Of a stretch of 64,000 nucleotides of DNA, positions 33,013-63,800 are shown piece by piece (within the stretch, counting starts at the first letter, position 1; every line of letters begins with the position of its first letter). The notes below the pieces were generated by a model. It did not search any database. It worked only from the letters and a program-made list of their open reading frames with translations, and had not been told where the DNA came from. Position numbers and translations under genes: made by a program. Location: positions 10,044,001-10,108,000 of the forward strand of contig JBHGNT010000001.1 of the NCBI GenBank assembly GCA_043228905.1. Direction: 5' to 3'. The DNA comes from Azolla caroliniana. Lineage: Eukaryota; Plantae; Polypodiophyta.

Positions 33013-33339
33013 TGTTGGTAGACAGGTCCCTCCGGATGGTGCAGCCCGGTATGAACCGGATGAGGAGAACCCGACTTCAGAGAGTCGGATGGTGCAGGCC
33101 CGGTATGAACCGGATGAGGAGAACCCGACTTCGGAGAGTCGGATGGTGCAGGCCCGGTATGAACCGGATGAGGAGTACCCGACTGCGGAGAGTCGGATGG
33201 AGCCCATCGAGGCTACATTTGTAAATAGCCGAAGAGTCATATTAGTATAAATATGACTTAGGGAAAACTTTTATGTGGGTTGTCATTCTTGTTGTTCTTC
33301 TTTCTTGTTGGTGCAAGAAGAAATCAGAGCGCGTAACTG

Positions 33340-33392
<53 letters not shown>

Positions 33393-36300
33393 GAGGTCGT
33401 TGCCTTTGTTGTAACCGCCGCCTGTGGCGAAGATCTGAGAGCACGAGGTCGTTGCCTCGGTGATCTCACTGTTGTATATTTCTGCATAGTGACAGTTTGC
33501 AGCTTGTGGGCTGTCGTGGTTTTTTCCCTATTTTGGGGTTTTTCCACGTATACCTCCTGTGCACCTCTCCTTCTCCTCTTTTGTGTCGCGTTTCATTACC
33601 TGTTTTTTCTGTGTATGTAAATAATCTCGGTTGTGGCCGAGCGTCGGACATAAGGAACCTCGAGTCCCCAACAAGTGGTATCAGAGCGAAATCGACACAG
33701 AAAATGGACGAATCGTTTGGCGGCATGTTCAAGCTCACCGGCTCCAACTATTCAGTGTGGAAGTCGAAGATGAGGGACATGCTCGTGGTAAAAGACCTCT
33801 GGCTGCCGGTTCAGTTCGGGGACAAGAGACCGGACAAAATCGACGCTGCGATATGGGAGGTGATGCACATGAAGACAACGGCGTACATACGGTGCTTCAT
33901 TGACATGAGCCTGTACAACAACTTCAATGAAGAGAGTAAGGCTCATGAACTCTGGGAGAAGATCGGCACAATGTTCCAGAACAAAAACGCTGTCAATCAG
34001 GCGTCGATATTCCGGAAGCTTGTAAGACTCCGGTACCAAGATGGCCACAGCATGGCGGAGCATATGAATGCCTTCCAGGGGCTGATTCACCAGGCAACGT
34101 CATTGGAAGTACCTCTTGCCGATGAGGTCCTAGCGCTACTCCTGCTCGGTTCCCTCCCGGATAGCTGGGAGACGTTGGTTGTTACTTTGGGCAACGCCGG
34201 GCCGGAAGGAAAACGACTATCCCTAGCAAGAGTAAAGTCGAGCTTGCTAGATGAGGAGGCTCGTCGGAAAGACAAAGATACGAGCTCCGACTCCAAAGCG
34301 CTCCTTACCGAATCGGAACGCGGAAGACATGGAAATCGTAGTCCCCAGAACCGGGAGAAGTTGGGGACACGATCAAAGTCAAGGGGGAGGCCTACTTGCT
34401 TCTATTGCGGCAAGCCGGGACACTTCCAAAAGAACTGTCGGCATTTCCGTAAAGACAAGGAAACCGACGGTACCGATTCGAAGCAAACCCCGAACCGGAA
34501 CGGTACAGACCGGAACGGTAAAGACTGGAGGGGGCCGGACCGGAAGGGAACGACGGCAATTGCGGCAAGTGAAGAGGAGTTGATGCTCATCACCGAGGAA
34601 AGTGAGATAAACCATGCCGGCGATGAGATGACCTGGGTGGTAGACTCCGGAGCGTCGTTCCACCTTACCCCGGACCGGAAATGCTTCTCATCCTACTCAG
34701 CCGGTGATCACGGCTGTGTCCGGATGGGGAATGAAGGAACATGCCGAATTGTCGGCATAGGAGACGTGTGGCTGACAACACCAACCGGATGTAAGTTGCT
34801 GTTGAAAGATGTCCGACACGTTCCGGAAGTTCATCTGAACCTGATATCAGCCGGTCGGCTAGATGATGAAGGTTACACGGGTAGCATCCGGAACGGTGTC
34901 ATGAAGTTCAGCAAAGGGAGCCTGATTGTGGCTCGGGCCCGGAAGGTAAACACACTGTACCTGATGAATACCCGGTTATGTCCGGAAGAAGTGAACGTGG
35001 CTTCCGACACTACCGGTGAGCTGTGGCACAAGAGGCTATGTCACATGAGTGAGAAGGGGATGAAGAGGCTTAGAGACGACAACCTCATTCCAGTGAAGAA
35101 CGTGCACTTAGAGAAGTGCACTGATTGTCTGGCCGGTAAGCAGAACCGGACCTCCTTCCGACAAAGGCCACCGATGAGACGTAATGCACCACTGGAGTTG
35201 GTGCATACGGATGTTTGTCAAGTAGACACGAAGTCACATGCCGGAGCGCAGTACTTCGTGACGTTCATAGATGACCACAGCCGGAAGCTGTGGGCCACAC
35301 CGCTGAAGACGAAGGATCAGGTGTTATCCGTCTTCAAAGAGCTCCACGCGAGAGTGGAAAGAGAAACCGGCCGGAAGCTGAAGGTGGTTCGAGCAGATAA
35401 CGGAGGTGAGTACCGGGGGCAGTTCGAGGAGTACTGCCGCTCGAAGGGAATCCGGCTCGAATTTACCGTGCCGAAGATGCCGGAACTAAATGGACTGGCC
35501 GAGAGGATGAACCGGACCATAATGGAGAGGGTCCGGAGTATGCTAGCGCATGCAAAACTACCCAAGGAGTTTTGGGCCGAGGCACTGTCGACGGCGACAT
35601 ATGTGATAAACAGATCACCCTCAGTACCCTTGGACGGAGACACACCACAGAGAGTATGGACCGGTAAGGAAGTGTCCTACCGGCATCTGAGGGTGTTCGG
35701 GTGTCTCGCGTACGTGCATGTAGCAAAGGACCGGAGAGGAAAGCTAGATCCAAAGACCCGGCCATGCATATTCCTCGGTTACGGTGACGATGAGTTCGGC
35801 TACCGAGTGTGGGACCCGGTCGACAAGAAGGTATTCCGGAGTCGAGACATTATCTTCATGGAGGACAAGACGCTCGCCGACTGGGAGTCGGAGAAGAAGA
35901 TAATGAACTCCGAGCCGACCGGTAAGGATAGACTCTACAATGAGCAGACCCAACCGACAAGAGACCGGTTAGCACTCGAGGAACCAGCCGGTTACGGTGA
36001 GGATACCGAACCGGCAGAAGAAGAAGTAGAGGAAGCTGAGACCGGAACCGGTCAAGACCCCGAATCGGATTCGGATGAAGAGCAAATGGAGGAACCGATT
36101 ACCGAAGCCCGAAGACGTAGATATCCTCTCAGAGAGAGAAGGGCGCCCCGGAGATTTCCGGATGCAGAGCATGTCCTGCTGACCGATGAGGGGGAGCCGG
36201 AAAGCTTCGAAGAAGCGAAGGTTGACACCCACAGCCGAAAATGGTTAAGTGCCATGCAGGATGAGATGGATTCCCTGCATGAGAACCATACATACGAATT

Positions 36301-38048
36301 GGTGGAGCTGCCGAAAGGAAAGCGGGCACTCCGAAACAAGTGGGTATTCAAGTTGAAACCGGGAGATGCCGGCAACCCCCCGAGATACAAAGCCAGGATC
36401 GTGGTGAAGGGGTTCCAGTAGAAGAAGGGCGTGGATTTCGACGAAATATTCGCCCTGGTAGTAAAGATGACTTCCATCCGGACGGTGCTGAGTATAGCAG
36501 CAAGCATGGATCTCGAGGTAGAGCAGCTGGACGTGAAGATGGCATTCCTTCACGGCGACCTCGAAGAGGAGATCTACATGCAGCAACCGGAAGGGTTTGT
36601 GGAGAAAGGGAAGGAGCACCTGGTATGCCGGTTGAAGAAGAGCCTATACGGACTGAAGCAGGCTCCCCGTCAATGGTATCGGAAGTTCGACTCCTTCATG
36701 ACCGATCAAGGGTACCACAAGACGCAGGCCGATCACTGCGTGTTTGTGAAGAAGTTCGAAGGAGGGGACTTCCCTATACTCCTCCTGTACGTGGATGACA
36801 TGTTGATCGTCGGACGAGACCAAGGAAAAATACGGATGCTGAAGAAGGCTCTCAACCGTACCTTCTCAATGAAGGACTTGGGTCCGGCAAGACAGATGTT
36901 GGGGATGCACATCATTCGGGACCGGTCAGTGAAGCAACTATGGCTGTCACAGGAGAAGTATGTGACAAAGGTGCTTCACCGGTTCAACATGTCAGATGCA
37001 AAACCGGTCGGATCGACACTTCCGGCAAACTGCAAGTTGTCCGGCAAGCAAAGCCCGAAGACAAAAGGAGAGAAGGCAGATATGATGAAGATTCCATATG
37101 CCTCTGCCGTCGGGAGCTTGATGTACGCAATGGTTTGTACCCGACCGGACATTGGATACGCAGTCGGAGTGGTGAGCCGGTTCATGAGTAATCCCGGCAA
37201 GGAGCATTGGATCGCGGTCAAGTGGATACTCCGGTATTTGAAGGGAACTTCAAATATGTGCCTCCGATTCGGCACCGGAAAACCTCAACTGGACGGTTTC
37301 ACCAATTCGGACATGTCGGCTGATGTGGATACCAGCCGGTCTACATCCGGGTATGTGATGACATATGCAGGGGGAGCTGTCTCGTGGCAGTCGAGGCTGC
37401 AGAAGACGGTTGCATTGTCAACCACAGAGGCGGAATACATGGCGGCTGTGGAAGCCGGCAAGGAAATATTATGGATGAAGGACTTCATCGGAGAGCTCGG
37501 TATCCAGCAAGAGGAATACCGACTCTACTGCGACAATCAAAGTGCCATCCACCTTGTTAAGAATGCTGCCTACCATTCCCGGACGAAGCATATCTAGCGG
37601 AGGTATCACTGGATTCGGGAAAGGGTAGATGACCAAGAGTTCGCACTGGCGAAGATCCACACGGCCGAGAACGGGTCGGATATGTTGACCAAAGTGTTGA
37701 CACCCGACAAGCTGGACGCATGCCGGAAGAGGATCGGGCTGGAAAGACACCCCATGCCGGAGTGAAGGGGGAGTTTGTTGGTAGACAGGTCCCTCCGGAT
37801 GGTGGAGCCCGGTATGAACCGGATGAGGAGAACCCGAGTTCGGAGAGTCGGATGGTGCAGGCCCGGTATGAACCGGATGAGGAGTACCCGACTGCGGAGA
37901 GTCGGATGGAGCCCATCGAGGCTACATTTGTAAATAGCCGAAGAGTCATATTAGTATAAATATGACTTAGGGCAAACTTTTATGTGGGTTTTCATTCTTG
38001 TTGTTCTTCTTTCTTGTTGGTGCAAGAAGAAATCAGAGCGCGTAACTG

Positions 38049-38097
<49 letters not shown>

Positions 38098-38378
38098 GAG
38101 GTCGTTGCCTCTGTTGTAACCGCCGCCTGTGGCGAAGATCTGAGAGCACGAGGTCGTTGCCTCGGTGATCTCACTGTTGTATATTTCTGCATAGTGACAG
38201 TTTGCAGCTTGTGGGCTGCCGTGGTTTTTTCCCTATTTTGGGGTTTTTCCACGTATACCTCCTGTGCACCTCTCCTTCTCCTCTTTTGTGTCGCGTTTCA
38301 TTACCTGTTTTTTCTGTGTATGTAAATAATCTCGGTTGTGGCCGAGCGTCGGACATAAGGAACCTCAAGTCCCCAACA
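33013..38378 (+). mobile_element. Complete Ty1/Copia LTR retrotransposon (Tnt1/Tork-like; Copia-1) nested between PR and RT of Gypsy-1
   Basis: LTRs 33013-33673 and 37776-38378 (TGTTGG..CCAACA). TSD GTACG. PBS TGGTATCAGAGC (tRNA-iMet) at 33676. PPT GAAGGGGGAG at 37764. Confidence 0.97.
33704..37765 (+). pseudogene. Copia-1 gag-pol polyprotein (~1353 codons) with two in-frame TAG stops
   Basis: CFYCGKPGHFQKNC, WVVDSGAS, LWHKRLCH, RADNGGEY, SLYGLKQAPRQW, LLYVDDML, ALSTTEAEY. TAG codons at 36419 and 37595, probably from CAG. No frameshift seen. Confidence 0.93.
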
Positions 38379-47759: not shown

Positions 47760-48968
47760 ACATTTGAGCAATTTCAACCGTTATACATTGAAGGTTTTTG
47801 AAGTCCTATGCATAAATCTTCAATTGTAAAGAAGGGAGACATATGTGAAAAAGAATCATAACACGTCATTTTTTCAACAAGAGGTAGCTCATATAAATTT
47901 TTACTATGCATAGATAAGTTAAGAAGCGTTAAGTCACAATAACTCTGAACACGTTTCCATTTATATATTCCCCAAAATTTAGCATATGGATGTGTTTTTT
48001 CTTGTGTTTGAGAAATTGTTGAGTACCTTCCCATATTCATCTCTTTCTTTAAATAAGCCTTTTGTCCTCATTCAATTGCTTTTGATAATTTTCTTTATCC
48101 TTGACTACATCCAAAATCATAAGGCAATTCCAAGCTTCATGGAATTCTTCATCAAACCATACTTTATACATGGGTGCTCACTTATAGTTCATGCTCAAGT
48201 ATGTTTGTTTATTATCTTCAATGGCCTTCTCACAATCAAACATATGCATACATTTGATGTCAAGTCCAGTGATCGAATTCCAGTGTCCATTCACCAAGTG
48301 AGAATATGTGTACATACGATCCAAAATACCTTTGGATACTAGCACATAGTCAATCACACTATTTCCATTGTGTTTTCTACATGTAAAACTATTAATGTTG
48401 GGCCATAAGGATACAATATCATTTGCAATAAGAATTCCTGTATTATTGCACATTTGTAGGAGTAATTTCCCAAACTTGGTCAGTATACTTTTTATCACTA
48501 GAAGAGCCACTATACATTTGTATATCCTTTTGCATCCTTGAGATATGTAGCGTGAACGATTGTTGTGCATCAAGTCGGAAACATCTTGTATAGGCATTCA
48601 TGTCACCAAGGACAATAATTATGCCTTTGTATTTGAAATAAGGAATATCATCTTCTAGATTGGCAAAAGATTGATCTTTATCTAAACAAGCATAAACGTT
48701 AGGGGTTTCTATTTTGAGCCATATGTAGAATTTATGGTCATCATTTTTTTATGATTGACACATATTTCTTTATTTCCTTCTTAATCAAACATGTTAGCCC
48801 TCCTTGTCCTCATCACTGTCTTAGATTTTTCACCCATATCAAATAGTGTACATTATAGTTTCCTAAACCTTGATTCCTTTTCATGCTTCCATTTTTCAAC
48901 AAGACGTGTGATATCTGATTCATTTGTGAACTCCTCTATGCCAAATCCTGTATTCCATGGGTATCTAT
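47760..48968 (-). pseudogene. LINE apurinic-endonuclease remnant
   Basis: The minus strand gives IIVLGDMNA (~48610), FGKLLLQMC and SFTC..GNSVIDYVLVS, the APE-type endonuclease motifs. Confidence 0.7.
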
Positions 48969-49399
48969 TGTTAGGAAACAGATCCCTCCGGATGGGATAG
49001 GAGTACCCGGCAACGGAAGACCCGGTGAGAACCGGATGACGAGTGCCCGGCAAGAGCCGGATGGTGAAGGCCCGGTGAGAACCGGATGACGAGTGCCCGG
49101 AAAGAGCCGGATGGTGAAGACCTGGTGAAAACCGGATGACGAGTGCCCGACAAGAGCCGGATGGTGAAGACCCGGTGAGAACCGGATGACGAGTGCCCGA
49201 CAAGAGCCGGATGATGCAGGCCCGGTGAGGAGTGCTCATCGGATGAAGGGACATATTCGTAAATATGTTTTTGAGAGTCCATTGGGACTATATTTGTAAA
49301 TAGCCGAAAAGTCATATTAGTGTAAATATGACTTAGGGCAAATTTAGAGAGAGAGGTGTGTGATTATCGTTGTCGCGATAATTTTGTGCGTAATTGTGT

Positions 49400-49436
<37 letters not shown>

Positions 49437-52400
49437 GAGGTCGTTGCCTCTGTTGTAACCGCTGCTTGTGGCGAAGATAGCAAGCTCGAGGTTGTTGCCT
49501 CGGTGCTTTACTATTGTACATTGTGATATAGTGATAGTTTGTAGTCCGTGGGTTGCCGTGGTTTTTCCCTAGTTTGGGTTTTCCACGTAAACATCCTGTG
49601 TACTCTTCTCTTTACTGTATCGTGTATCCATTACCCGTTTTTCTGTGTTTGATCCTAGACTCGGTTGTGGCCGAGCGTTGTTTTTAGAGAGCGTGTAGGC
49701 CGGACAAAGTAGTATCAGAGCGAAACGACATAGAAAAATGGACGATTCGTTGGGAGGCATGTTCAAGCTCACCGGCTCCAATTACTCATTGTGGAAGTCG
49801 AAGATGAGGGACATGCTCGTGGTTAAAGATCTTTGGTTGCCGGTTCAGTTCGGGGACAAGAGACCGGACAAAATCGATGCCACGATATGGGAGGTGATGC
49901 ACATGAAGACAACGGCGTACATACGGTGCTTCATCGACATGAGTCTATACAACAACTTCAATGAAGAGAGCAAGGCTCATGAGCTCTGGGAGAAGATCAA
50001 CATTATGTTTCAAAATAAAAATGTTGTTAATCAGGTTTCGGTATTTCGGAAGCTAGTAAGACTCCGGTACCAAGATGGCTCCAGCATGGCGGAGCACATG
50101 AATGCCTTCCAGGGGTTGATACACCAGGCAACATCATTGGAAGTACCTCTCGCCGATGAGGTACTAGCACTACTCCTGCTCGGTTCCCTCCCAGATAGCT
50201 GGGAGATGTTGGTTGTCACTTTGGGCAACGCCGGGCCGAAAAGGAAACAGTTATCCCTAGCAAGAGTGAAGTCGAGCTTGCTAGATGAGGAGGCGCATCG
50301 AAATGATAAGGATACAAGCTCCGACTCCAAAGCGCTCCTTACCAAATCGGAATGCGGAAGACAAAGGAACCGTAGTCCCCAGAACTGGGAGAAGTTGGGG
50401 ACACGGTCAAAGTCAAGGGGGAGGCCTACTTGCTTCTATTGCGGCAAGCCGGGTCACTTCCAGAAGAATTGTCGGCACTTCCGAAAAGACAAGGAAATCG
50501 ACGGCATTGATTCGAAGCGGACATCGGACTGGAACGGTAAAGATCGGAAGGGATCAGACCGGAAGGGAACGACGACAATCACGGCAAGTGAAGAAGAGTT
50601 GATGCTCATCACCGAGGAGAGTGAGTTGAACCTTGCCGGTGATGAGATGACCTGGGTGGTCGATTCCGGAGCGTTGTTCCACTTTACCCCGGACCAGAAA
50701 TGCTTCTCATCCTACACAGCCGGTGATCACGACTGTGTCCGGATGGGGAATGAAGGTACATGCCGAATTGTCGGCATAGGAGACGTGTGGTTGACAACCC
50801 CAACCGGATGCAAGCTGCAGCTGAAGGATGTCCGACACGTTCCGGAGGTTCGACTGAACCTGATATCAGCCGGGCGGCTAGATGATGAAGGCTACACGGG
50901 TAGCATCCGGAACGACGTTATAAAGTTCAGCAAAGGGAGCCTGATTGTGGCTCGGGCCCGGAAGGTCAACACTCTGTACCTGATGAATGCCCGGTTATGT
51001 CCGGAGGAAGTGAACTTGGCATCCGACACTGCCGGTGAGCTGTGGCACAAGAGGCTGTGTCACATGAGCGAGAAGGGGATGAAGAGGCTTGCAGACGACA
51101 ACCTCATTCCAGTGAAGAATGTGCACTTGGAGAAATGCACGGATTGTCTGGCCGGTAAGCAAAACCGGACCTCCTTCCGACCAAGGCCACCGATGAGACG
51201 TAATGCACCACTGGAGTTGGTGCATACTGATGTGTGTCAAGTGGACACGAAGTTACATGCAGGATCGCAGTACTTCGTGACGTTCATAGATGACCACAGC
51301 AGGAGGCTGTGGGCCACACCATTGAAGATGAAGGATCAGGTGTTATCCGTCTTCAAAGAGCTCCACGCGAGAGTGGAAAGAGAAACCGGCCGGAAACTGA
51401 AGGTGGTTCGAGCAGATAACGGAGGTGAATACCGGGGGCAGTTTGAGGAGTACTGCCGCTGGAAGGGAATCCGGCTCGAATTTACTGTGCCGAAGACGCT
51501 GGAACTAAACGGGCTGGCCGAGAGGATGAACCGGACCATAATGGAGAGGGTCCGGAGTATGCTGGCGCATGCAAAATTACCCAAGACATTTTGGGCTGAG
51601 GCGCTGTTGACAGCGACGTATGTGATAAACAGATCACCCTCAGTGCCCTTGGACGGAGACACACCGGAGAAGGTGTGGACCGGTAAGGAAGTGTCCTATC
51701 GGCATCTGAAGGTATTTGGGTGTCTTTTGTACATGCATGTAACTAAGGACCGGAGAGGAAAGTTAGATCCGAAGACCCGGCCATGCATATTCCTCGGTTA
51801 CGATGACGATGAGTTGACAAGAAGGTATTCCGAAGGTTGAGATATTGTCTTCATGGAGGACAAGACGCTCGCCGACTGGGAGTCGGAGAAGAAGATAATG
51901 AACTCCGAGTCGACCGGTAAGGATCGATTCTACGATGAGCAGACCCAACCGGCAAGAGACCGGTTAGCACTCGATGAACCGGTCGGTGACGGTAAGGAGA
52001 CAAGACATGCCGAAGAAGAAGGAATAGGTGAAACCGGAACCGGCCAGGATCCCTAATCGGATTCGGATGAAGAACAAATAGAGGAGCTGGTTGCCGAAGG
52101 TCAAAGATGGAGATATCCTCTTAGAGAGAGAAGGCCCCCCCGAAGATTTCTGGATGCAGAGCATGTGCTGTTGACCGATGAGCAGGAGCCGGAAAGCTTT
52201 GAAGAAGCGAAGGAAGACACCCACAACCGCAAATGGTTAAGTGCCATGCAGGATGAGATGGATTCCCTGCATGAGAACCATACATACGAATTGGCGGAGT
52301 TGCCGAAAGGAAAACGAGCACTCTGAAACATGTGCCAGGTGTACAAGTTGAAACTGGGAGATGATGGCAACCCCCCGAGATACAAAGCTAGGATCGTGGC

Positions 52401-52982
52401 GAAGGGGTTCCAACAGAAGAAGGGTGTGGACTTCGATGAGATATTTTCCGCGGTAGTAAAGATGACCTCCATCTGGATGGTGCTGAGTATAGCGGCAAGC
52501 ATGGATCTCGAGGTAGAGCAGCTGGACGTGAAGACGACATTCCTTCATGGTGAGCTCGAAGAGGAGATCTACATGCAGCAACCGGAAGGATTCGTGGAGA
52601 AAGGGAAGGAGCACTTGGATTGCCGGTTGAAGAAGAGCCTGTACGGACTGAAGCAGGCTCCCCCCGATAATGGTACCGGAAGTTCGACTCCTTCATGACC
52701 GATCAACTTGGGTACCACAAGACGCAGGCTGATCATTGCGTGTTTGTGAAGAAGTTCGAAGGAGGCGACTTCCTGATACTCCTTCTGTACGTGGATGACA
52801 TGTTGATCGTCGGACGGGACCAAGCCAAAATTCGGATGCTGACGAAGGCTCTCAACCGAACTTTCGCAATGAAAGACTTGGGTCCGGCAAGACAGATGCT
52901 GGGGATGTATATCATCCGGGACCGGCCAAAGAAGCAATTGTGGTTGTTACAGGAGAAGTACGTGACAAAGGTGCTTCAGCGG
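48969..52982 (+). mobile_element. Ty1/Copia (Copia-2, same family as Copia-1): 5' LTR plus gag-pol, cut in the RT by a Gypsy insertion
   Basis: LTR 48969-49706; PBS TAGTATCAGAGC at 49710. ORF 49738-51840 is highly similar to Copia-1 and is followed by frameshifts and stops. Its 3' end is not in the window. Confidence 0.93.
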
Positions 52983-55289
52983 TGTCGTGAAGAAAACCGT
53001 CCCTTAGCGTAATCGGTGCATAGCGCGCGTGAACCGGCTCTTCACACGTGCACGCCCTTTAATGTATATAGTAGAGAATTAGGTACAAAGGTATATCCTA
53101 GGTAGTTAGATTCGGTAGGTAGGAAGTTAATGAGGGAAACAGCTCCCTTCTTGAAGCTATAAAAGAGAGGGAGACGCAGGGAGAAAGAGGGGAATTTGAT
53201 TAAAGAGGACGAAGTGCTGTCGGACCGAAACCGAACGCTTCCCCTCTGTTCGTTCTCCGTCGCTCTTCTTTGCAGGTTTTAGGGAGGCTCGCGCTGCTTC
53301 GAGGAACGCCCGTGTGCTTCCGGCAGCACCTCCATCCTATCCCCTTTTGTGCGCAGACGAGCAGGCATCGATATCTGTTCGCCGGCCTGTTCGGTTGTAA
53401 CCGCTCGCGTGCTCTGTTGTTTATTTGTCATTCATTAATATACAAACATTCGTGTCTCTCTGTCTCTGTGTCCGTTCGTGTCTTCTGCGTTGACATGGCC
53501 GTGTCCCTGAGTTTCTTTGCTCATACGTAACCGAGCGTCTCTCTCTTTCTCTTTCCCCTTCTATCACCTGCTCTTTGGTCCAAGACCCCGGTGGTCCCAC
53601 CTCGTTCTCCACGCACGCGCGTAGTAACGCGACATCTTTGGTGAGCCCGACGTGAATAAGGCGGTAGAGGAGTAGAAGATGAGGGGGTCGGATCTTGCAG
53701 AGGCCATGGCTTCGGCCGTGGACCGGATAGTGAGCGCGCGCGAGGGCGCTGGCGCCCTTGACAGGGCTATTGAGACGATCGTCGGTACGATCGGCCGGTT
53801 CAGTGGAAAGGATGCCACGAGTTATTTGGCGTCCTACCGGGCGGAGATGTTGATGAGGGATATTCCGGAAGAGAGGCGTCTTGCCGGATTCCCTCGAGTG
53901 GCGATGTCGGGCATCCAAGCGGAGGTGCTCGAGGTCCGGGCGGAGAGCCGGACCTGGGAGGAGTTCGAAGTACGGCTCTTGGAGAAATACGGGCTGGATG
54001 ACGCGCTTCGACTTTTGAAGCGGGGCTTCATAGAGTGGGTGGAGTCCCCCAACAAAGGAAGAAATGCGTCGGTACTCCTCCGGGAGTTTGAGGAACGCTT
54101 TGCGTGCCTTTCGGCGCTCGATCAGACCGTTCTGGACACAAGTCGTGTCCTATTGTTTGTCAAATCGGTTGACGCACGGGATCGGGAGCAAGTGGGCTCC
54201 TTATTGGAAACCGAAGACGGGCTGACAGCCGACTGGGCCACGGTAAAAAGAGTCTGCGGCCGTTTTGACAAACGGTGGGAGTGGGCTGATACAGGGGCGA
54301 CCGGGGCGGGTCCTGCCGCAGCAAGGAAGCTCGAACCGATACCATAGGAACGAAGGTAAGAGACCCGGGAGTGGCTCGAAACTGGTTCGGCTTTGACCGG
54401 CGTGGTCAGAGGCTTGTCCGGGGGAACAGCTTTGGAGGAGTTGACACGGGCGGTAAAGGATCTCCAGATCGCCCAGGCTCGGAGGGAAGGCGGCGAACAT
54501 GTTCGTGACCGACGGCCTCCGGCAGAAAATAGGTGCATGTGGTGCGACGAGGTCGGCCACATCCGGAAAGACTGCGGGGACTTTGCGGAGGCCTTGGGAA
54601 GCCGGTGTCGTGAAGAAAACCGTCCACGAGCGGAATCGGTGCGCCGGAGCATAGGAACCGGCTCTTCATGCACGTACGCCTTACGTTGTACATAAGAGAG
54701 AATTAGGGACATAGAAGATCCTAGGTAGGTCGATTCAGTAGGTAGGAAGTTAATAGGAAACGACTCCTTCCTTGCCTATAAAAGGAGGGAGACGAGGAGG
54801 GGGAAGGGATCGCAGAATCAGAGAGGAAGAAGTGCTGTTGGGCTGTTGGTCGAAGGCTTCTCTCTCTTCCATACTCTCCGTAGCTTCTTTCTGTGCAGGT
54901 TTCGTGAGGCTCGCGCTGCTCTGAGGAATGCCCGAGTGCTTCCGGCAGCACCTCCAACCTACTCCTTCCTTTCTTCGCATTCGCGAACAGGCATCAACAT
55001 CTGTTCGTTGGCCTGTTTGGTTGTAACCGACTTCGTGTTTTGTTGTTTTTCTCTGTTAATATATACTTACATACCGTTGTGCCTCTCTGTGTTGGTTTCC
55101 ACGCTCGCGTCTTCGTGTCGAAGGGCCGTGTCCCTGTGGATCTACACTCGCACGTAGTGGGTCTCTTCTCCTTTCTCTCTTGCTCTTCGGTACAGGACCC
55201 CCGAGGTCCCGCCTCATTCCACGCATCCGCGAGGAATACTTCGACATCTTGGTGAACCCGACGTGAAAGAGGCGGCAGAAGAGAAGAAG

Positions 55290-57404
55290 ATGAAAGGGTC
55301 GGATCTTGCGGAGGTCATGGCTTCGGCCGTGGATCGGATATTGAGCGCACGCGAGGGCTCCGGCGCCCTCGACAGAGCTATTGAGGCGGTCGTCGGTACG
55401 ATCGGCCGGTTCAACGGAAAGGATGCCACGTAGTATTTGGCGTCCTACGGGCCAGAAATGCTGATGCGGGACATTCCGGAAGAGAGGCGTCTTGCCGGGT
55501 TCCCTCGAGTGGTGATGCCGAGCATCCATGCGGAGGTGCGGGCGGAGAGCCGTACCTGGGAGGAGTTCGAAGGTCGACTCCTAGAAAAATACGGGCTGGA
55601 CGACGCGCTCCGGCTTTCGAAACGGGACTTCATGGAGTGGGTGGAGTCCCCCGGCAAGGGAAGAAACGCGTCGGCACTCGTCCGGGAGTTTGAGGAATGC
55701 TTCGCGCGCCTTTCGGCGCTTGACCGAACCATTCTGGATACGAGCCGGGTCCTACTGTTCGTCAAGTCGGTGGACGAGAGGGACCGAGATCAAGTCGGCT
55801 CCTTGCTGGAAACCGAAGACGGGCTGACGACTGATTGGGCTGCGGTTAAAAGAGTCTGTGGCCGTTTCGACAAACGGCGAGAATGGGCTGATGACGGGGC
55901 GGCCGGTGCGGGCTCTGTCACAGCAAGGAGGCTTGAACCGGCACCGCAAGGGTGAAGGGAAGAGGCCCGGGAGTGGCTCGAGACCGGTTCGGCGTCGACC
56001 GGCGTGGTCAATGGCTCGACCGGAGGAGCAGCGCTGGAGGAGTTGACGCAGGCGATAAAGGATCTCCAGATCGCCCAGACTCGAAGAGAAGGCGACGAGC
56101 CGGCTCGTGACCGACGACCGGCAGCCGGGAACAGGTGCATGTGGTGCGACGAGGTCGGCCACATTCGGAAGGACTGCGGTGATTTCGCTGAGGCGTTGAG
56201 GAACCGGGTGGTGTACCTGTGGGAAGGCCGGGTGCACGCTGGCGATACCAGAAGGGCCCTAAACCGAAACGACGGGCGAGGAGGTATGAAGAGACTGATG
56301 GAAGAGGCAGCGGCCCGACACGTGGAAGCCATCCACTACTCGGCGTCGGCCGGTATTCGGGTCGGGGGCAGCGAGGCCCGAAAGGAGAGCAAAGACGGAT
56401 TCTGGGCGGCAATGCTGGAAGGCCTTGCCGGCGCACGGCTGAGGGAAGATGAAGCGGACCGCGCTGAGAAACGGGTCCGGGAAATAACCGGGTGGAGCGA
56501 CCCGGTCGAGGAGAAGACGGGCTTCGTAGAAGCCGCCTGCCGGAACTACGAGGCTCTGGTGGAAGACAAACGAGTGGGGAAAGCCGGAGCGGCCGGGCCC
56601 TCACAACGATACGAGACCTGATTCGGGCAACGACGGAACGATGCCGGTGGGTCCAACGCGCAAGATAACCCCAGGAAGGGCGGATACCGACTGGGGACGG
56701 AAATAGAACGGTCCACGGACCTATGAAAGGTCCTAGAAGAACGGATCCTCGACAGCAAAGTGGAGCTGTCATTACGGGAGGTGCTAGGGATCGCCAAGGA
56801 GTTCCACGACTCCATTGTGGACTTGGTGAAACGGAAGAGGCTGTCGACGGAGACAGAACCAGAGAGACCGGTGGAGGTGCGGACGACGCACATCGACGAC
56901 TCGGCGCTGGCAGATGAGTGGGCGGAGAGCCACTATTCGAGGCCACACTGGGCCCGAGCGACCACGGAGACCCGGGTAAAGATCGAAGATGTTCAGGAAC
57001 CGGTGGTGGCATTGGTGGACCATGGTTCGGAAATAAACCTAATGTCCATGGACTTCTATAAGAAGGGAAAGTGGCCGATCAACACCAGGCACGGGTGGAA
57101 GATACGAGTGGCGACGCGCGCCACCGAGGAACTGCACAGGGCCTGCCCGAACGTGCGAGTCAAGATCGGCGACGTCGAGATTGACCAACACTTCTTCGTA
57201 CAGGAGACGTCCTCGCACCCGGTCATATTAGGGGAACCATACATCACGGCGGTGCGAATGGAGACCAAGGTGCTGGACAACGGTTCGGCCTACGCGAGGG
57301 TCAAAAGCTAGGACGGGTGCCATTCGGTCCAATTTCTGATGGTACGGCCGAACCACGAGCGAAACCGCGACTCCCTCGGTGGCGAGAACCGAGAGGATTT
57401 TTAG
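55290..57404 (+). pseudogene. Element B gag-protease ORF with several in-frame stops
   Basis: MKGSDLAE..FNGKDAT..CMWCDEVGHIRKDC..ALVDHGSEINLM..ILGEPY..NREDF*. Confidence 0.85.
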
Positions 57405-60400
57405 AGAGGGCTGCCAAGGCGTGGGGCCGAGACAGCCCGGACACTCGGGAAAGACCCCATGACTGTACGATAGAACCGAAACCGAAGGAACCCTGTACGA
57501 TAGGTAGGAAATTTTGCTTCTCCAACAACGGAGGGTGTATGATAGTCGGCATCGTTGGCCGAGAAAAGACAAAGGCGGAAGTGCGACTTCGAGCGTGCGG
57601 AGTTCTCGCCCCGGACGAGGAAATCAGCGGAGCCGTGGAGGCGGTCTCCTTCGACGACACCTTGGGAATGCTGAGGGAGGTAGCCGGAGAAGACCTTAAC
57701 GAAGACCGGACGATACCGGTATGTTCCGAAGAGATGTACGAAGTCATTGCGAACTTTAGTCAGGGGCTCGGGTCGGATCGGACGGCCCGGGTTTGCACGA
57801 AGTACAAGACTGTGGACCGGAAGGTAAGGCCAGTCGTAGCACCCTTACCGGAGGGCAGCGAGTCCCGAATCAGAGGGGTTGTGTCGGACCCCAGTTTACG
57901 AGATCCGGCCTACATAGGACACACCTTCACCGACGGGACGCTCCGGGAACTCAAAATCGATGGGGGCGGGTTCCTATTGCCGGCGGAGGAAGACCGGTTT
58001 CGGAGGATGCTCGGAAGGCACGGGAAAGCCTTCGCATTCTCACCAGAAGAGATCGGGTGCGTAGACCCGACAATCGTGGAGCCGATGGTGATATTCACGA
58101 TACCGCATGTACCGTGGAATCTCAAGCTGATTCCAGTACCAAGAGCTCACATCCCGAAGTTGATGGAGCTATTGAGGCAGAAAGTCGATATGGGCATTCT
58201 CGAACCGTCGAGTGCCCCATACTCGAACCGATGGTTTACTGTACCAAAGAAAAACGAAACATTGCGCTTCATTCAAGACCTGCAGCCGGTCAACAGAGTG
58301 ACCATTCGGAACGCAGGAATCAGACCGACCATAGACGAGTTCGCGGAGGCCTTCGCCGGAAGGTCGATTTACTCGGTCGGTGATCTGTACTCGGGGTACG
58401 ACCAGTTCCAGCTAGCCGTGGAGAGCAGAGACATTACGACGATGCGAACTCCCCTCGGCCTAGTGCGAATGTGTACCCTGCCACAAGGAGGGACCAACTC
58501 GGTGGCCCACATGGTGAATGCAATGAACAAGGTACTGAGGGATTGCATCCCGGACATCACCATGCCATTTCTGGACGACATCCCGATAAAGGGGTGCCCG
58601 GTGGAAGAGAAGGACGAGACAGTCGGGCCAGACGGATGCCGGCGATTCGTGGCAACACACATCGACGACTGCGAGAAGGTTCTACAAAGGCTAGAGGATG
58701 CGAGGCTCACCTTCTCCGGGGAGAAATTGGCCTTCGAGCAATCAAAAATCCTGGTGGTCGGACACCTATGTGGACCATATGGCCGGAAGCCGTCTCCGGC
58801 AAAGGTAGAAGCCATCTCAACGATGAAGACCGACTGTAGCTCGGTTACGGAAGTTCAGAGGTTCCAAGGGGCATGCACGTTCTACCACATATGGATCCCA
58901 CATTACGCCCACGTTGCGGAGCCGCTATACGGGTTGCTGAAGAAAGGGCGAAAATTCGAGTGGCGAGACGAGCACACGGAGTCGGTCCGGAAGCTGAAGG
59001 AAGCTCTTGCGGTAGCACCGACGCTCCGGAAGGCTGACTACGAGAAGGGTACCCCGGTATACATAACAGTGGATACGAGTCCGACCGGGATCGGATGGGT
59101 CATCAACCAAGAAGACGAGGACGGCATACGGTTCCCGATCCGATTCGGCGCGAAGGTCCTCAGTGAGCGACAGCGAGGGTACGCCCAGGTTAAACGCGAA
59201 CTCTGGGGTATCGTTTCGGCAGTAAAGGTCGACAAAGACTACCTGATCGGGACAGAAGTGATTATCGAGACGGATTGCCTGCCAATTCTCGGCATGGTTT
59301 CCGGATGCGACACATTTCCGGAAAGGACAACGCCATGGCCGACATGCTTTCGAGGGCGAGGTTTGATGACGAGGGCGACATGGTTTCGGAAGACGAAGAA
59401 GTCGGCGTGGACTTCTTCGAGGCGGCGTACGTGACGACCGATGGGACGAGCACTCCGGCAGTTAACGACTTCGACGAGAGCAAGTACGATGGCGAGTGGC
59501 TCTAGATCGGTGGTTTCTTGAGGACAATGACGCCGGATGCGTCGTGGACGAGGGACGAGGCCCACCGGATCCGGAAGAAAGCATACCGCTTCTTTCTCCG
59601 GGACGGATACTTATGGAAGCACCCGAAGAAGAGGAACGGCGTCCTGCTCCGGGTGGTGGCGATGAAGGAAGAACAGGAGGAGCTGCTGACGGCCTACCAC
59701 GACAGTCCTTGGGCTGGACACCGTGGAACGTGGGCCACGTTCGAGAAGATAAAGGGGAAGTACTGGTGGCCGGGACTGTACCGGGACGTGCATTGGTTTG
59801 TGACAACTTGCGAGAGCTGTCAGATGCACTCCATAGTTCGGCATCAAGACGAGCTTCACCCTACGTACCCTCCGACCATCCACTTCAAATGGATGGTAGA
59901 TATGGTGACGATGCCGATGGGAGTAGGACAGATGCAGTATCTGGTCCTGGCTCGGGAAGATCTGACGAACGAGGTGGAAGGCCGAGCCATTCAGAACAAA
60001 ACGACCGCGGCCGTATGTCAGTTCCTGATGGAGGACATGATATGTCGGGAAGATCGTGGCTGATCGCGGGGAGTTGAACGCCGAAGAGGCCGAGGAGGTG
60101 TTCGACCAGCTAGGAGTCAAGCTCTCGCTCACCACTGCATACAATCCGGAGGTGAATGGGAAGGTGGAGCGAGGACACGGACCGATCGTCAAGGCGTTAG
60201 TTCGGGCATGCGGAGGTCAAGTCGGGAACTGGCCGCGGCTGTTGCCTTACGCGTTGTGGGCGGACCGAACTACGCACAGTTCGGTAACCGGATTCATTGC
60301 GGCAGAGCTCATGTTTGGGCAGAAGCCGATCATGCCGATGGAACGTACGATCTCCTCATGGGCAACCGTGGACTGTAGAGACGAGATGAGCCGGGAGGAA

Positions 60401-60820
60401 CTGTTGACGGCGCGCATACGACAGCTGGAGCGAAGACCGGAGGACGTGGAGCAGGCCGCGGAAAAGCTTCGGGTGGCAAGGACGAGGAACAAAGCCCGGT
60501 TCGACCGGACGCATCGGCTCCGACCGAAGAAGATCGAGGAAGGCGACTGGGTGCTAGTCTACGACAGGAGCCTCGACAACCAGCACCGAGCGACACGGCA
60601 GTTCGCAAGAAGGTGGTTCGGGCCTTACGTGGTACAAAGCGCCAACGACAACGGGACGTACCATCTGGCGGAACTCGACGGCACGAGAATGTCGATACCG
60701 GTAGCTGGGAAGCGGATCAAAGCGTTCAAGAAGCGTCACGATGACGAGCCGGATCCGGATAACCTGGACCGAGACGACGAACGATCCGAAACCGAACAAG
60801 AACCGACGGGCGGGGAATAA
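57395..60820 (+). pseudogene. Element B pol (RT-RNase H-integrase), in the -1 frame relative to gag-pro
   Basis: SAPYSNRWFTVPKK..LRFIQDLQ..DLYSGYDQ..LPQG..PFLDDIPIKG; RH VDTSPTGIG; INT H..GH..YWW..CESCQ, DRGE, YNPEVNGKVERGH, WFGPY. Deletion or frameshift near 59307 and ~60050. Confidence 0.9.
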
Positions 60821-63800
60821 AGGCTAGACCGGTTTTCTCAGTCCCAACTCAATTTGGCGCATGCCGGTGGATGCGCGGTTAGGTGGGGGCGGATGTCGTG
60901 AAGAAAACCGTCCACAAGCGGAATCGGTGCGCCGGAGCATAGGAACCGGCTCTTCATGCACGTACGTCTTACGTTGTACATAAGAGAGAATTAGGGACAT
61001 AGAAGATCCTAGGTAGGTAGATTCGGTAGGTAGGAAGTTAATAGGAAACGGCTCCTTCCTTGCCTATAAAAGGAGGGAGACGAGGAGGGGGAAGGGATCG
61101 CAGAATCAGAGAGGAAGAAGTGCTGTTGGGCTGTCGGTCGAAGGCTTCTCTCTCTTCCATACTCTCCGTAGCTTCTTTTTGTGCAGGTTTCGTGAGGCTC
61201 GCGCTGCTCTGAGGAATGCCCGAGTGCTTCCGGCAGCACCTCCAACCTACTCCTTCCTTTCTTCGCGTTCGCGAACAGGCATCGACATCTATTCGCCGGC
61301 CTTTTCGGTTGTAACCGACTTCATGTTTTGTTGTTTGTCTCTGTTAATATATACTTACATACCGTTGTGCCTCTCTGTGTTGGTTTCCACGCTCGCGTCT
61401 TCGTGTCGAAGGGTCGTGTCCCTGTGGATCTACACTCGCACGTAGTGGGTCTCTTCTCCTTTCTCTCTTGCTCTTCGGTACAGGACCCCCGAGGTCCCGC
61501 CTCATTCCACGCATCCGCGAGGAATACCTCGACACCGGGTAGTGTACCTGTGGGAAGGTCGGGTGCACGCCAGCGATACTCGGAGGGCCCTGAACCGAAA
61601 CGACGGGCGAGGAGGAATGAAAAGGCTGATGGAAGAGGCGGCGGCCCGACACGCGGAGATCGTCCACTACTCGGCGTCAGCCGGTATTCGGGTCAGAGGC
61701 AGCGAGGCCCGGAAGGAGAGCAAAGCCGGGTTTTGGCCGACGATATTGGAAGGGCTCGCCGGTGCCCGACTAAGGGAAGATGAGGCGGCCTGCGCGGAGA
61801 AGCGCGTCCAGGAGGTAACCGGGTGGAGTGACCCGGTCGAAGAAAAGACGGGTTTCGTCGAAGTAGCTTGCCAGAACTACGAGGCTCTGGTTGAAGACAA
61901 ACGGGTAGGTAAAACCGGAGGGGCCGGACCCTCACAGAGATACGTAACCCGATTCAGGCCGAAACAGAACGAGGCCGGTGAAACCAGTGCCCGAGATAAC
62001 CACAAGAAGGGCGGATACCAGTTGGGCACGGAGATCGAAAGGACCACGGACCTACGAAAGGTCCTGGAAGAACGAATCCTCGACAACAAGGTGGAACTGT
62101 CGTTGCGGGAGGTGCTCGGAATCGCCAAGAAGGAGTTCCACGACTCCATCGTAGACTTGGTGAAGAGGAAGAGGCTGTTGACGGAGATAGAACCGGAAAG
62201 GCCGGTGGAGGTGTGGACGACGCACATAGAGGACATGGCGCTGGAAGACGAGTGGGCGGAGAGCCACTATTCGAGGCCACACTAGGCCCGAGCGACCACG
62301 GAAACCCCAGTGAAGATCGGAGATGTTCAGGAACCGGTGGTGGCGCTGGTGGACCACGGTTCGTAAATAAACCAGATGTCCATGGACTTCTACAGAAAGG
62401 GGAAATGGCCGATCAACACCAAGCACGGGTGGAAGATACGGGCGGCGACGCGCGCCACCGAGGAACTACACGGGGCCTGCCCAAACGTGCGAGTCAAGAT
62501 CGGTGACGTCAAGATAGACCAACACTTCTTTGTGCAGGAGACGTCCTCGCACCCGGTCATACTGGGAGAACCGTACATTACGGCATCACGGATGGAGACC
62601 AAGGTGCTGGACAACGGGTCGGCTTACGCGAGGGTCAAGAGTCAGGACGAGCGTCATTCGGTCCAGTTCCTGACGGTGCGACCGAACCACGAGCGAAACC
62701 GCGAGTCCCTTGGTGGCGAGAACCGAGAGGATTTTTAGAGAGGGCTGTCAAGACGTGGGGCCGCGATAGTCCGGACACTCCGGGAAAACCCCACAAATGT
62801 ACGATAGAGGCGAAACCGAAGAAACCTTGTACCATAAGTAGGAAGTTTTGTTTCTCCGACAACGGAGGGTGTACGATAGTTGGCGTCGTTGGCCGAGAAA
62901 AGACGAGGGCGGAAGAGCGACTTCGGGCGTGCGGAGTTCTCGGGCCCAGCGAGGAAATCAACGGAGCCGTGGAGGCGGTCTCCTTCGACGATACCTTGGG
63001 AATACTGCGAGAGGTGGTCGGAGAGGGCCTTAAAGAGGACCGGACGATACCGGTTTGTTCAGAAGAGATGTACGAAGTCATCGCGGACTTCAGTCGAGGG
63101 CTCGAGTCGGATCGGACGGCCCGGGTTAACACGAAGTACAAGACTGTGGACCGGAAGGTAAGGCCAGTCGTGGCACCCTTAACGGAGGGCAGCGAGTTGC
63201 GAATCAAGGGGGTCGCGTCGGACCCCAGTTTACGAGATCCGGCCTGCATAGGATACACCTTCACCGACAGAACGCTACGGGAGCTCAAAATCGGTGGGGG
63301 CGGGTTCCTACTGCCGGCGGAAGAAGACCGGTTTCGGAGAATGCTCGGAAGGCACGGGAAATCCTTCGTATTCTCACCGGAAGAGATCGGGTGCGTAGAC
63401 CCGAAAGTCGTGAAGCCGATGGTGATATTCACGGTACCGCATGTGCCGTGGAATCTCAAACCAATTCTAGTACCGAGAGCGGCCAAGGACGAGGCTGAGA
63501 TACAGATCGCGGAACCGGAACATTGGGACTAGCGGTTTCGGGCGTGTCAGCCCGAGATCCCGGTCATTGGAGAAGCAAGCCCAGATGGGGCTTGCGCGAT
63601 CGGTAAGAAGACGACCGCCGACCACGAAGAGTCAGTGGCTACGGACGGGCGATTCTTTGTGTCTTCCCACACTTGCTCCCGAGACGATGGCAGTCGGGCC
63701 CAAATGCCCACGTGAGTCCCAAGCGGAGGAAGGCGGCGGAGAAAGGCCAAGAATCACCGACAAGACGATACGGGGAAGGAGCGGACGAAAGCCCACGGAC

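Follow-up and report, generated by a model that had tools for sequence, protein, structure and literature searches.

A candidate −1 frameshift signal with a predicted pseudoknot between protease and reverse transcriptase in Phygy-type retrotransposons of Azolla caroliniana

In Rous sarcoma virus and the avian sarcoma-leukosis viruses (RSV/ASLV), the protease (PR) is encoded in Gag, and the fusion with Pol accounts for about 5% of product (PMC12789967, PMC5009743). According to a 2016 review (PMC5009743), the plant long terminal repeat (LTR) elements in which a 2003 survey found gag and pol in different frames were all of the +1 arrangement. The table of a 2019 plant survey lists no overlapping PROT and reverse transcriptase (RT) frames, the overlaps given (Tcn1, Selgy, and SIRE) being between GAG and PROT, and it enters the open reading frame (ORF) organization of the Phygy lineage as not determined (Neumann et al. 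2019, PMC6317226); the available parts of that survey describe no frameshift signal for Phygy. Here we describe a 6.9-kb Ty3/gypsy element of the Phygy type at positions 54606-61534 of a 64,000-nt stretch of Azolla caroliniana DNA (contig JBHGNT010000001.1, positions 10,044,001 to 10,108,000), the whole of which is called the window. This element and its relatives carry a slippery site followed by a predicted H-type pseudoknot, which very probably (roughly 0.9 by our estimate) drives programmed −1 frameshifting between PR and RT in Phygy-type elements.

The studied family resembles RSV/ASLV in having PR within Gag, a putative −1 shift into pol, and a predicted pseudoknot stimulator, but RSV/ASLV is a retrovirus, whereas ours is a plant retrotransposon with a compact H-type knot and a leader of 120 to 155 residues ahead of RT. 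The RSV/ASLV heptamer also differs from that of the studied family. Pea enation mosaic virus 2, an umbravirus, has the same heptamer, a stop at or just after it, a spacer of 5 to 6 nt, and plant ribosomes as its setting; its stimulator, as described in the available text of PMC4737148, is a long bulged hairpin with long-distance pairing, whereas the one predicted here is a local H-type knot of ~55 nt. An earlier, sequence-only reading of this DNA had associated GGAUUUU with totiviruses, which is too narrow, since the heptamer has been mapped experimentally in this umbravirus (PMC4737148). Ogre and Retand elements (Tat) are split at the same place, GAG-PROT versus RT-RNase H (RH)-integrase (INT) (PMC6317226, supplement file 3), but their split consists of a spacer/intron or an in-frame stop, whereas the studied family has overlapping frames. 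The same reading had called an excess of Gag-PR over RT-RH-INT unusual; RSV/ASLV, Ogre, and Retand are comparable (PMC12789967, PMC6317226), and because such an excess is common to them, stoichiometry is not the novelty. What appears to be new is a −1 frameshift mechanism at the PR/RT junction of a plant lineage, of which we found no description. Neither a signal in Phygy nor a −2 shift in a retrotransposon was reported in the full-text literature searched, which mostly excluded subscription papers, and Repbase or GyDB may mention a two-ORF layout; the portions of PMC7466625 and PMC6911290 that were available make no mention of frameshifts.

At the PR/RT junction of the window copy, gag-pro terminates GAG GAT TTT TAG, and the −1 frame, which encodes RT and RH (57185-59434; Pfam RVT_1 and RT_RNaseH), is open through the heptamer. 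The cassette and its second copy in the window are as follows.

57395-57401, + strand: slippery heptamer G_GAT_TTT in the gag-pro frame (direct reading, comparison with relatives)
57402-57407, + strand: 6-nt spacer, opening with the gag-pro stop TAG (57402-57404)
57408-57415 (GGGCTGCC) with 57431-57438 (GACAGCCC), + strand: stem 1, predicted (folding, covariation)
CGTGGGG at 57420/57421-57426 with CCCCATG at 57455-57460/57461, + strand: stem 2, predicted; loop 3 is 16 nt
62729-62795, + strand: second cassette copy, belonging to the older related element that hosts the studied insertion

The sequence-only reading had given the heptamer, the stop, both pairs of stem arms, and a pol frame open in −1 through the heptamer, all of them exact. 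Its H-type pseudoknot stood as to position and both stems, but not as to every pair: in the window copy, seven pairs of stem 1 form, and pair 7 is a C-A mismatch (C-A in 31 and T-A in 28 of 60 close copies), and the stable core of stem 2 comprises six pairs, the outer C-G pair being possible in only 28/60 close copies. The best H-type knot score at the site was matched by none of 25 shuffles and at none of 22 other positions in the element. A nested-only fold of the window 79-mer placed stem 1 as described, with an unremarkable z score of −1.24 (23/200 shuffles did as well), and Rfam returned no match at E values up to 10 within 57300-57600. The elements of a canonical −1 signal found here are an open −1 overlap, a heptamer of a tested variant, and a predicted structure within 5 to 9 nt of it (6-nt spacer).

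Translation of such an RNA would proceed as follows. Most ribosomes would stop at the end of gag-pro and release Gag-PR; a minority, held up by the knot while GAU occupies the P site and UUU the A site, would slip back one base and read a leader of ~130 residues and then RT-RH-INT. Through its Gag portion the Gag-PR-Pol fusion would be packaged, the protease would cleave it, and the outcome would be abundant Gag-PR with little Gag-PR-leader-RT-RH-INT. According to PMC4737148, G_GAU_UUU has been tested as a −1 site with extract of wheat germ, and an adjacent stop helps.

The relation of the two frames was scored at metagenome loci collected through RT motifs alone: 80 loci were obtained, of which the 60 with both PR and RT were scored and the 20 without PR were not. 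(For the metagenome scan, a 21-sequence alignment was too diverse and a tighter one was taken.) Pol lay in −1 at 57 of the 60 and in +1 at 3; gag-pro and pol in one frame, the arrangement named by the sequence-only reading as incompatible with it, occurred at none. Two foreign protease queries against the genome placed pol in −1 at 53/60 loci (a few of them duplicates), the remaining seven being five decayed loci with pol not open from the site, one without a pol match, and one of a +1/−2 clade discussed below. These queries led to families only 63 to 78% identical in protease that terminate at the same signal. All 30 of the closest copies, a set biased by the query, keep the site and have pol in −1 at the junction. 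The cassette pattern had 4018 genome matches, compared with 5 for a reversed control. In several distant relatives on short contigs (P0032 to P0035), a single protein carries both PR and RT, so that these may be single-frame outgroups.

An in-frame heptamer was present at 59/60 metagenome loci: GGATTTT at 49, GGATTTC at 5, GGTTTTT at 2, and GGGTTTT, GAATTTT, and AAATTTT at 1 each, so that canonical G_GGT_TTT and A_AAT_TTT are among the relatives' heptamers. Across 32 representatives that were <85% alike, the heptamer columns were 91 to 100% conserved, compared with 28 to 66% for the 30 nt upstream. (The decayed L174, with a frame break downstream of an intact site, was excluded from these comparisons and from the tree; L207 was too short for the tree, and L204 has no site, apparently through a deletion there.) Because the gag-pro/pol overlap is short (10 to 217 nt, median 31), the shift is pinned to the heptamer.

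Shared ancestry inflates all of the pseudoknot counts. With that proviso, a fixed search for H-type knots downstream of the site gave one in each of the 33 rows, and in 30 of them no shuffle (0/25) attained the knot score; overall, 11/825 shuffles and 16/724 other positions did so, 8 and 11 of those, respectively, from one decayed copy. On an unfitted alignment of 25 sequences, 7 of the 11 stem 1 pairs were changed on both sides, and covariation was 0.31, against 0.21 when shuffled (0/500 reached the observed value) and ≤0.17 when slid; of five measures, stem 1 came out above both kinds of control, shuffled and slid, on four. Swapping arms among families gave a similar picture for both stems. 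Stem 1 arms paired at −12.6 kcal/mol within their own family versus −8.2 kcal/mol with those of other families, and stem 2 arms at −11.7 versus −9.0 kcal/mol, with 0/10000 permutations reaching either value; two control pairings had no own-family advantage. A distant family, L196, has GCATTCC/GGGGTGC and GCAGGA/TCCTGC, which is other sequence in the same geometry. The covariation analysis that the sequence-only reading had proposed was thus run, and both stems covary across the 32 divergent representatives; the predicted pseudoknot is well supported by comparison. Together with the conservation of frame and heptamer, this covariation across divergent families supports a −1 frameshift between PR and RT, as had been proposed, and indicates that the clade-wide recoding signal is real.

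Several points weigh against this reading. Frameshifting is deduced from sequence alone, and the window copy is unable to express the fusion: it is dead, with five premature gag-pro stops (55431, 55953, 56619, 56724, and 57309), a ~60-nt deletion in pol near 59305, and another frame break in integrase. G_GAU re-pairs poorly in the P site, according to PMC4737148. The list of eight admissible heptamers was fixed after the junctions had been inspected. Because the families are related by descent and a single assembly series supplied most of the metagenome loci, the 32 rows cannot be treated as independent events, nor the permutation figures as probabilities. As for the knot, the count of both-side changes in stem 1 was attained by 44/500 shuffles, nested folds gave z scores of only −1.2 to −2.2, and stem 2 was not counted on the unfitted alignment because the length of loop 3 varies.

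Two other routes to Pol fit poorly, since neither an AG nor a Met position is conserved. As in Ogre elements, a spliced RNA might be the source of Pol, its 3′ splice site being TTTTTAG, and on direct reading GATTTTTAG does resemble a plant acceptor. The TAG is missing at that place in 18/32 representatives (TAA in 7, TGA in 4, and a sense codon in 7), although the heptamer persists, and over the 110 codons from the site on, the pol frames of the 32 representatives contain 1 stop in all, compared with 278 and 302 in the other two frames. With pol stop-free from the heptamer, nothing needs removing, and splicing leaves the knot at its fixed 6-nt spacing unexplained. The frames of these representatives overlap at the junction, with no Ogre-type noncoding spacer bearing conserved splice sites. 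We regard splicing as highly improbable. (Four contig sets compared with the window junction and one sister-clade locus had no GT..AG joint across the site, but their patchy cover makes this count for neither side.) A separate start for pol, whether from an AUG of its own or through reinitiation once gag-pro has terminated, is slightly less probable again: the window copy does have an in-frame ATG at pol codon 48, and the stop is located at the foot of the structure, but the second cassette copy has ACG in place of that ATG, the first pol-frame Met of the representatives falls anywhere from codon 3 to 111 with no common position, conservation of the heptamer in the gag frame would go unexplained, and free Pol would be without the Gag part normally used for packaging.

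These findings give the frame layout of a clade that has thousands of copies in the genome, together with a likely mechanism, and a set of ~30 naturally occurring versions of a single compact pseudoknot that would act on ribosomes of plants. Frameshifting at this junction would also account for gene models of relatives that jump the junction and for such elements being scored as broken. The closest named proteins of the window element are from Riccia and Physcomitrium, and a predicted Physcomitrium patens protein is 69 to 72% identical to the cassette-bearing relative L191; those Riccia and Physcomitrium proteins in which PR and RT are joined are gene models and count for neither side.

A sister clade that is absent from the sequence-only reading has pol in the +1/−2 frame. 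It consists of one genome family and a second family known only from metagenome contig L192, which is 72% identical to the genome family over the junction (loci L089, L121 to L128, and L221 to L265 from the plant's own genome; L190:2836-2915; L192:2498-2577). The junction reads CAG GTT TTT (G/T)AC TAG and then the same knot, giving a site AG_GTT_TTT with a 5-nt spacer to the pseudoknot. All 43 distinct genome copies have pol in the +1/−2 frame, 42 of them keep AGGTTTTT, and the pattern has 95 exact matches. The two families, 0.23 substitutions per site apart, form a clade with 100/100 support that is nested among −1 families and weakly joined to two with CAG_GAT_TTY. Compared with those neighbors, one base is missing, which produces the new site plus a spacer of 5 instead of 6 nt. 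In the genome family, a −1 slip would hit a stop at once. Pol is open for 1154 and 1101 codons in the two families, with RT, RH, and INT present, and between the families RT-RH has a nonsynonymous divergence (dN) of 0.075 and a synonymous divergence (dS) of 1.11, by which measure sister-clade pol is under purifying selection. Both frames are open throughout in two of six retrieved genome copies, and the 1100-nt LTRs of one of those two are identical; the layout was therefore carried by a recent insertion. Target duplications were GCGG and CCGG in two sister-clade copies, and a third had unmatched flanks. In two further loci, L134 and L135, RT-RH-INT is absent and the protease frame runs straight into the tail of integrase, followed by the polypurine tract and LTR; these are likely a gag-pro-only, nonautonomous derivative of the sister clade.

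[quoted passage not shown] We lean slightly toward the view that the sister clade makes pol through a −2 frameshift that is RNA-stimulated and occurs naturally. The pol frame is the one to which a −2 slip leads, at the same AG_GUU_UUU as PRRSV nsp2TF, but PRRSV relies on a protein complex with no downstream RNA structure, as far as the available text of PMC7618472 describes it, whereas the sister clade has a covarying knot at 5 nt, and its shifted product would be the essential polymerase. Given that knot, the sister clade may work like the arterivirus site without being a member of that system. The broader history—a whole seed-free-plant clade with knot-driven −1 shifting after PR, one branch of which lost one base and now uses RNA-stimulated −2 shifting with the knot kept—has, in our judgment, a little better than an even chance of being right. 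If the −2 shift is real, a retrotransposon would join a short list of −2 cases that comprises phage Mu, arteriviruses, and Trichomonas virus 1 (PMC5009743), and the sister clade would offer a natural test of the spacer-tension model, which has so far been shown via spacer-varied test mRNAs.

The strongest competitor of −2 shifting in this clade, to which we give somewhat less than even odds, is a +1 slip (on GUU_UUU or UUU_NAC) or splicing. Most known access to a +1 frame is by +1 shifting (PMC5009743), and the UUU_U of L192 permits perfect +1 re-pairing, but the genome family mostly has UUU_G, with no cognate +1 re-pairing, and the AG_GTT_TTT kept in both families and in nearly all genome copies is the published PRRSV site. 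Spacers of 5 nt also serve −1 shifting in umbraviruses (PMC4737148), and several −1 families allow stem 1 to be drawn with a spacer of 4 to 5 nt; with the homologous GGACT as the end point, however, the sister clade has 1 nt less of spacer than the −1 families do, which is the direction favoring −2. As for splicing, TTTTTGACTAG followed by G resembles an acceptor and CAG/GT a donor, but L190 and L192 have no phase-compatible donor in common, and almost every downstream AG is purine-rich. A passive origin, in which a family mobilized by other elements inherited the +1 frame as a defect, is quite unlikely: one missing base relative to the CAG_GAT_TTT neighbors does yield the layout, and nonautonomous families are common, but the fully supported two-family clade, the long open pol frames, the dN and dS values, and the open copy with identical LTRs all argue against it.

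The remaining features of the window element are listed below.

54602-54605 (5′ copy) and 61535-61538 (3′ copy), + strand: target-site duplication CCGG, which fits NCGN
54606-55246, + strand: 5′ LTR, 641 nt, TG...CA, 97.2% identical to the 3′ LTR
55250-55266, + strand: primer-binding site (PBS), complementary to the 3′ end of tRNA-Trp(CCA)
55290-57404, + strand: Gag-protease reading frame with zinc knuckle CX2CX4HX4C, DUF4100, and protease motif DHGS near 57018
57395-57790, + strand: pol-frame leader, ~130 residues ahead of a TKYK motif, open and variable
57791-60820, + strand: −1 frame encoding RT, RNase H, and integrase; in the window copy it is broken past ~59305
60875-61534, + strand: polypurine tract and 3′ LTR (LTR 60894-61534; LTR comparison)

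The window element is of the type of Phygy, a nonchromovirus Ty3/gypsy clade, its NCGN duplication and tRNA-Trp PBS being Phygy marks; the PBS complement sits at the 3′ end in all three tRNA-Trp genes checked. Phygy's 4-bp NCGN duplication, tRNA-Trp PBS, and GAG-PR-RT-RH-INT order are all found in the studied elements, but Phygy is listed at 7.7 to 10.0 kb, whereas the lengths measured here run from 6.9 kb for the window element up to about 8.0 kb. When the window frames and two open pol frames were scanned with Pfam, which included no dedicated aRH profile, RT, RH, and INT appeared in that order, with neither a chromodomain nor an extra RNase H. In intact copies, gag-pro frames run ~710 to 790 codons and terminate after the protease. 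The protease active site (57018-57029) is DHGS rather than DTG or DSG, as it also is in many relatives, and some Riccia relatives have DTGS. Across families, the pol leader keeps a loose acidic motif, with dN/dS of about 0.25 between L190 and L192; it had no Pfam or atlas match, which says nothing on novelty. The studied element is inserted in the gag of an older Phygy-type relative (window 53640-54605 and 61535-63532).

Elsewhere in the window, two Copia elements with gag-INT-RT order (Pfam) lie at 33098-38351 and 49398-53000. The first has LTRs 99% alike and a single stop (36419-36421) between frames of 985 and 391 codons. AG microsatellites occur within Copia LTRs, and a tandem array with a 25/50-nt unit (48966-49265) lies just upstream of the second element. 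In the wider genome, tRNA-Trp-like 3′ ends ~0.9 to 1.2 kb apart form clusters at G000:C8:17796786-17823371, C16:4989495-5105657, and C5:10105608-10112201, which are either tandem tRNA-Trp arrays or tRNA-derived repeats.

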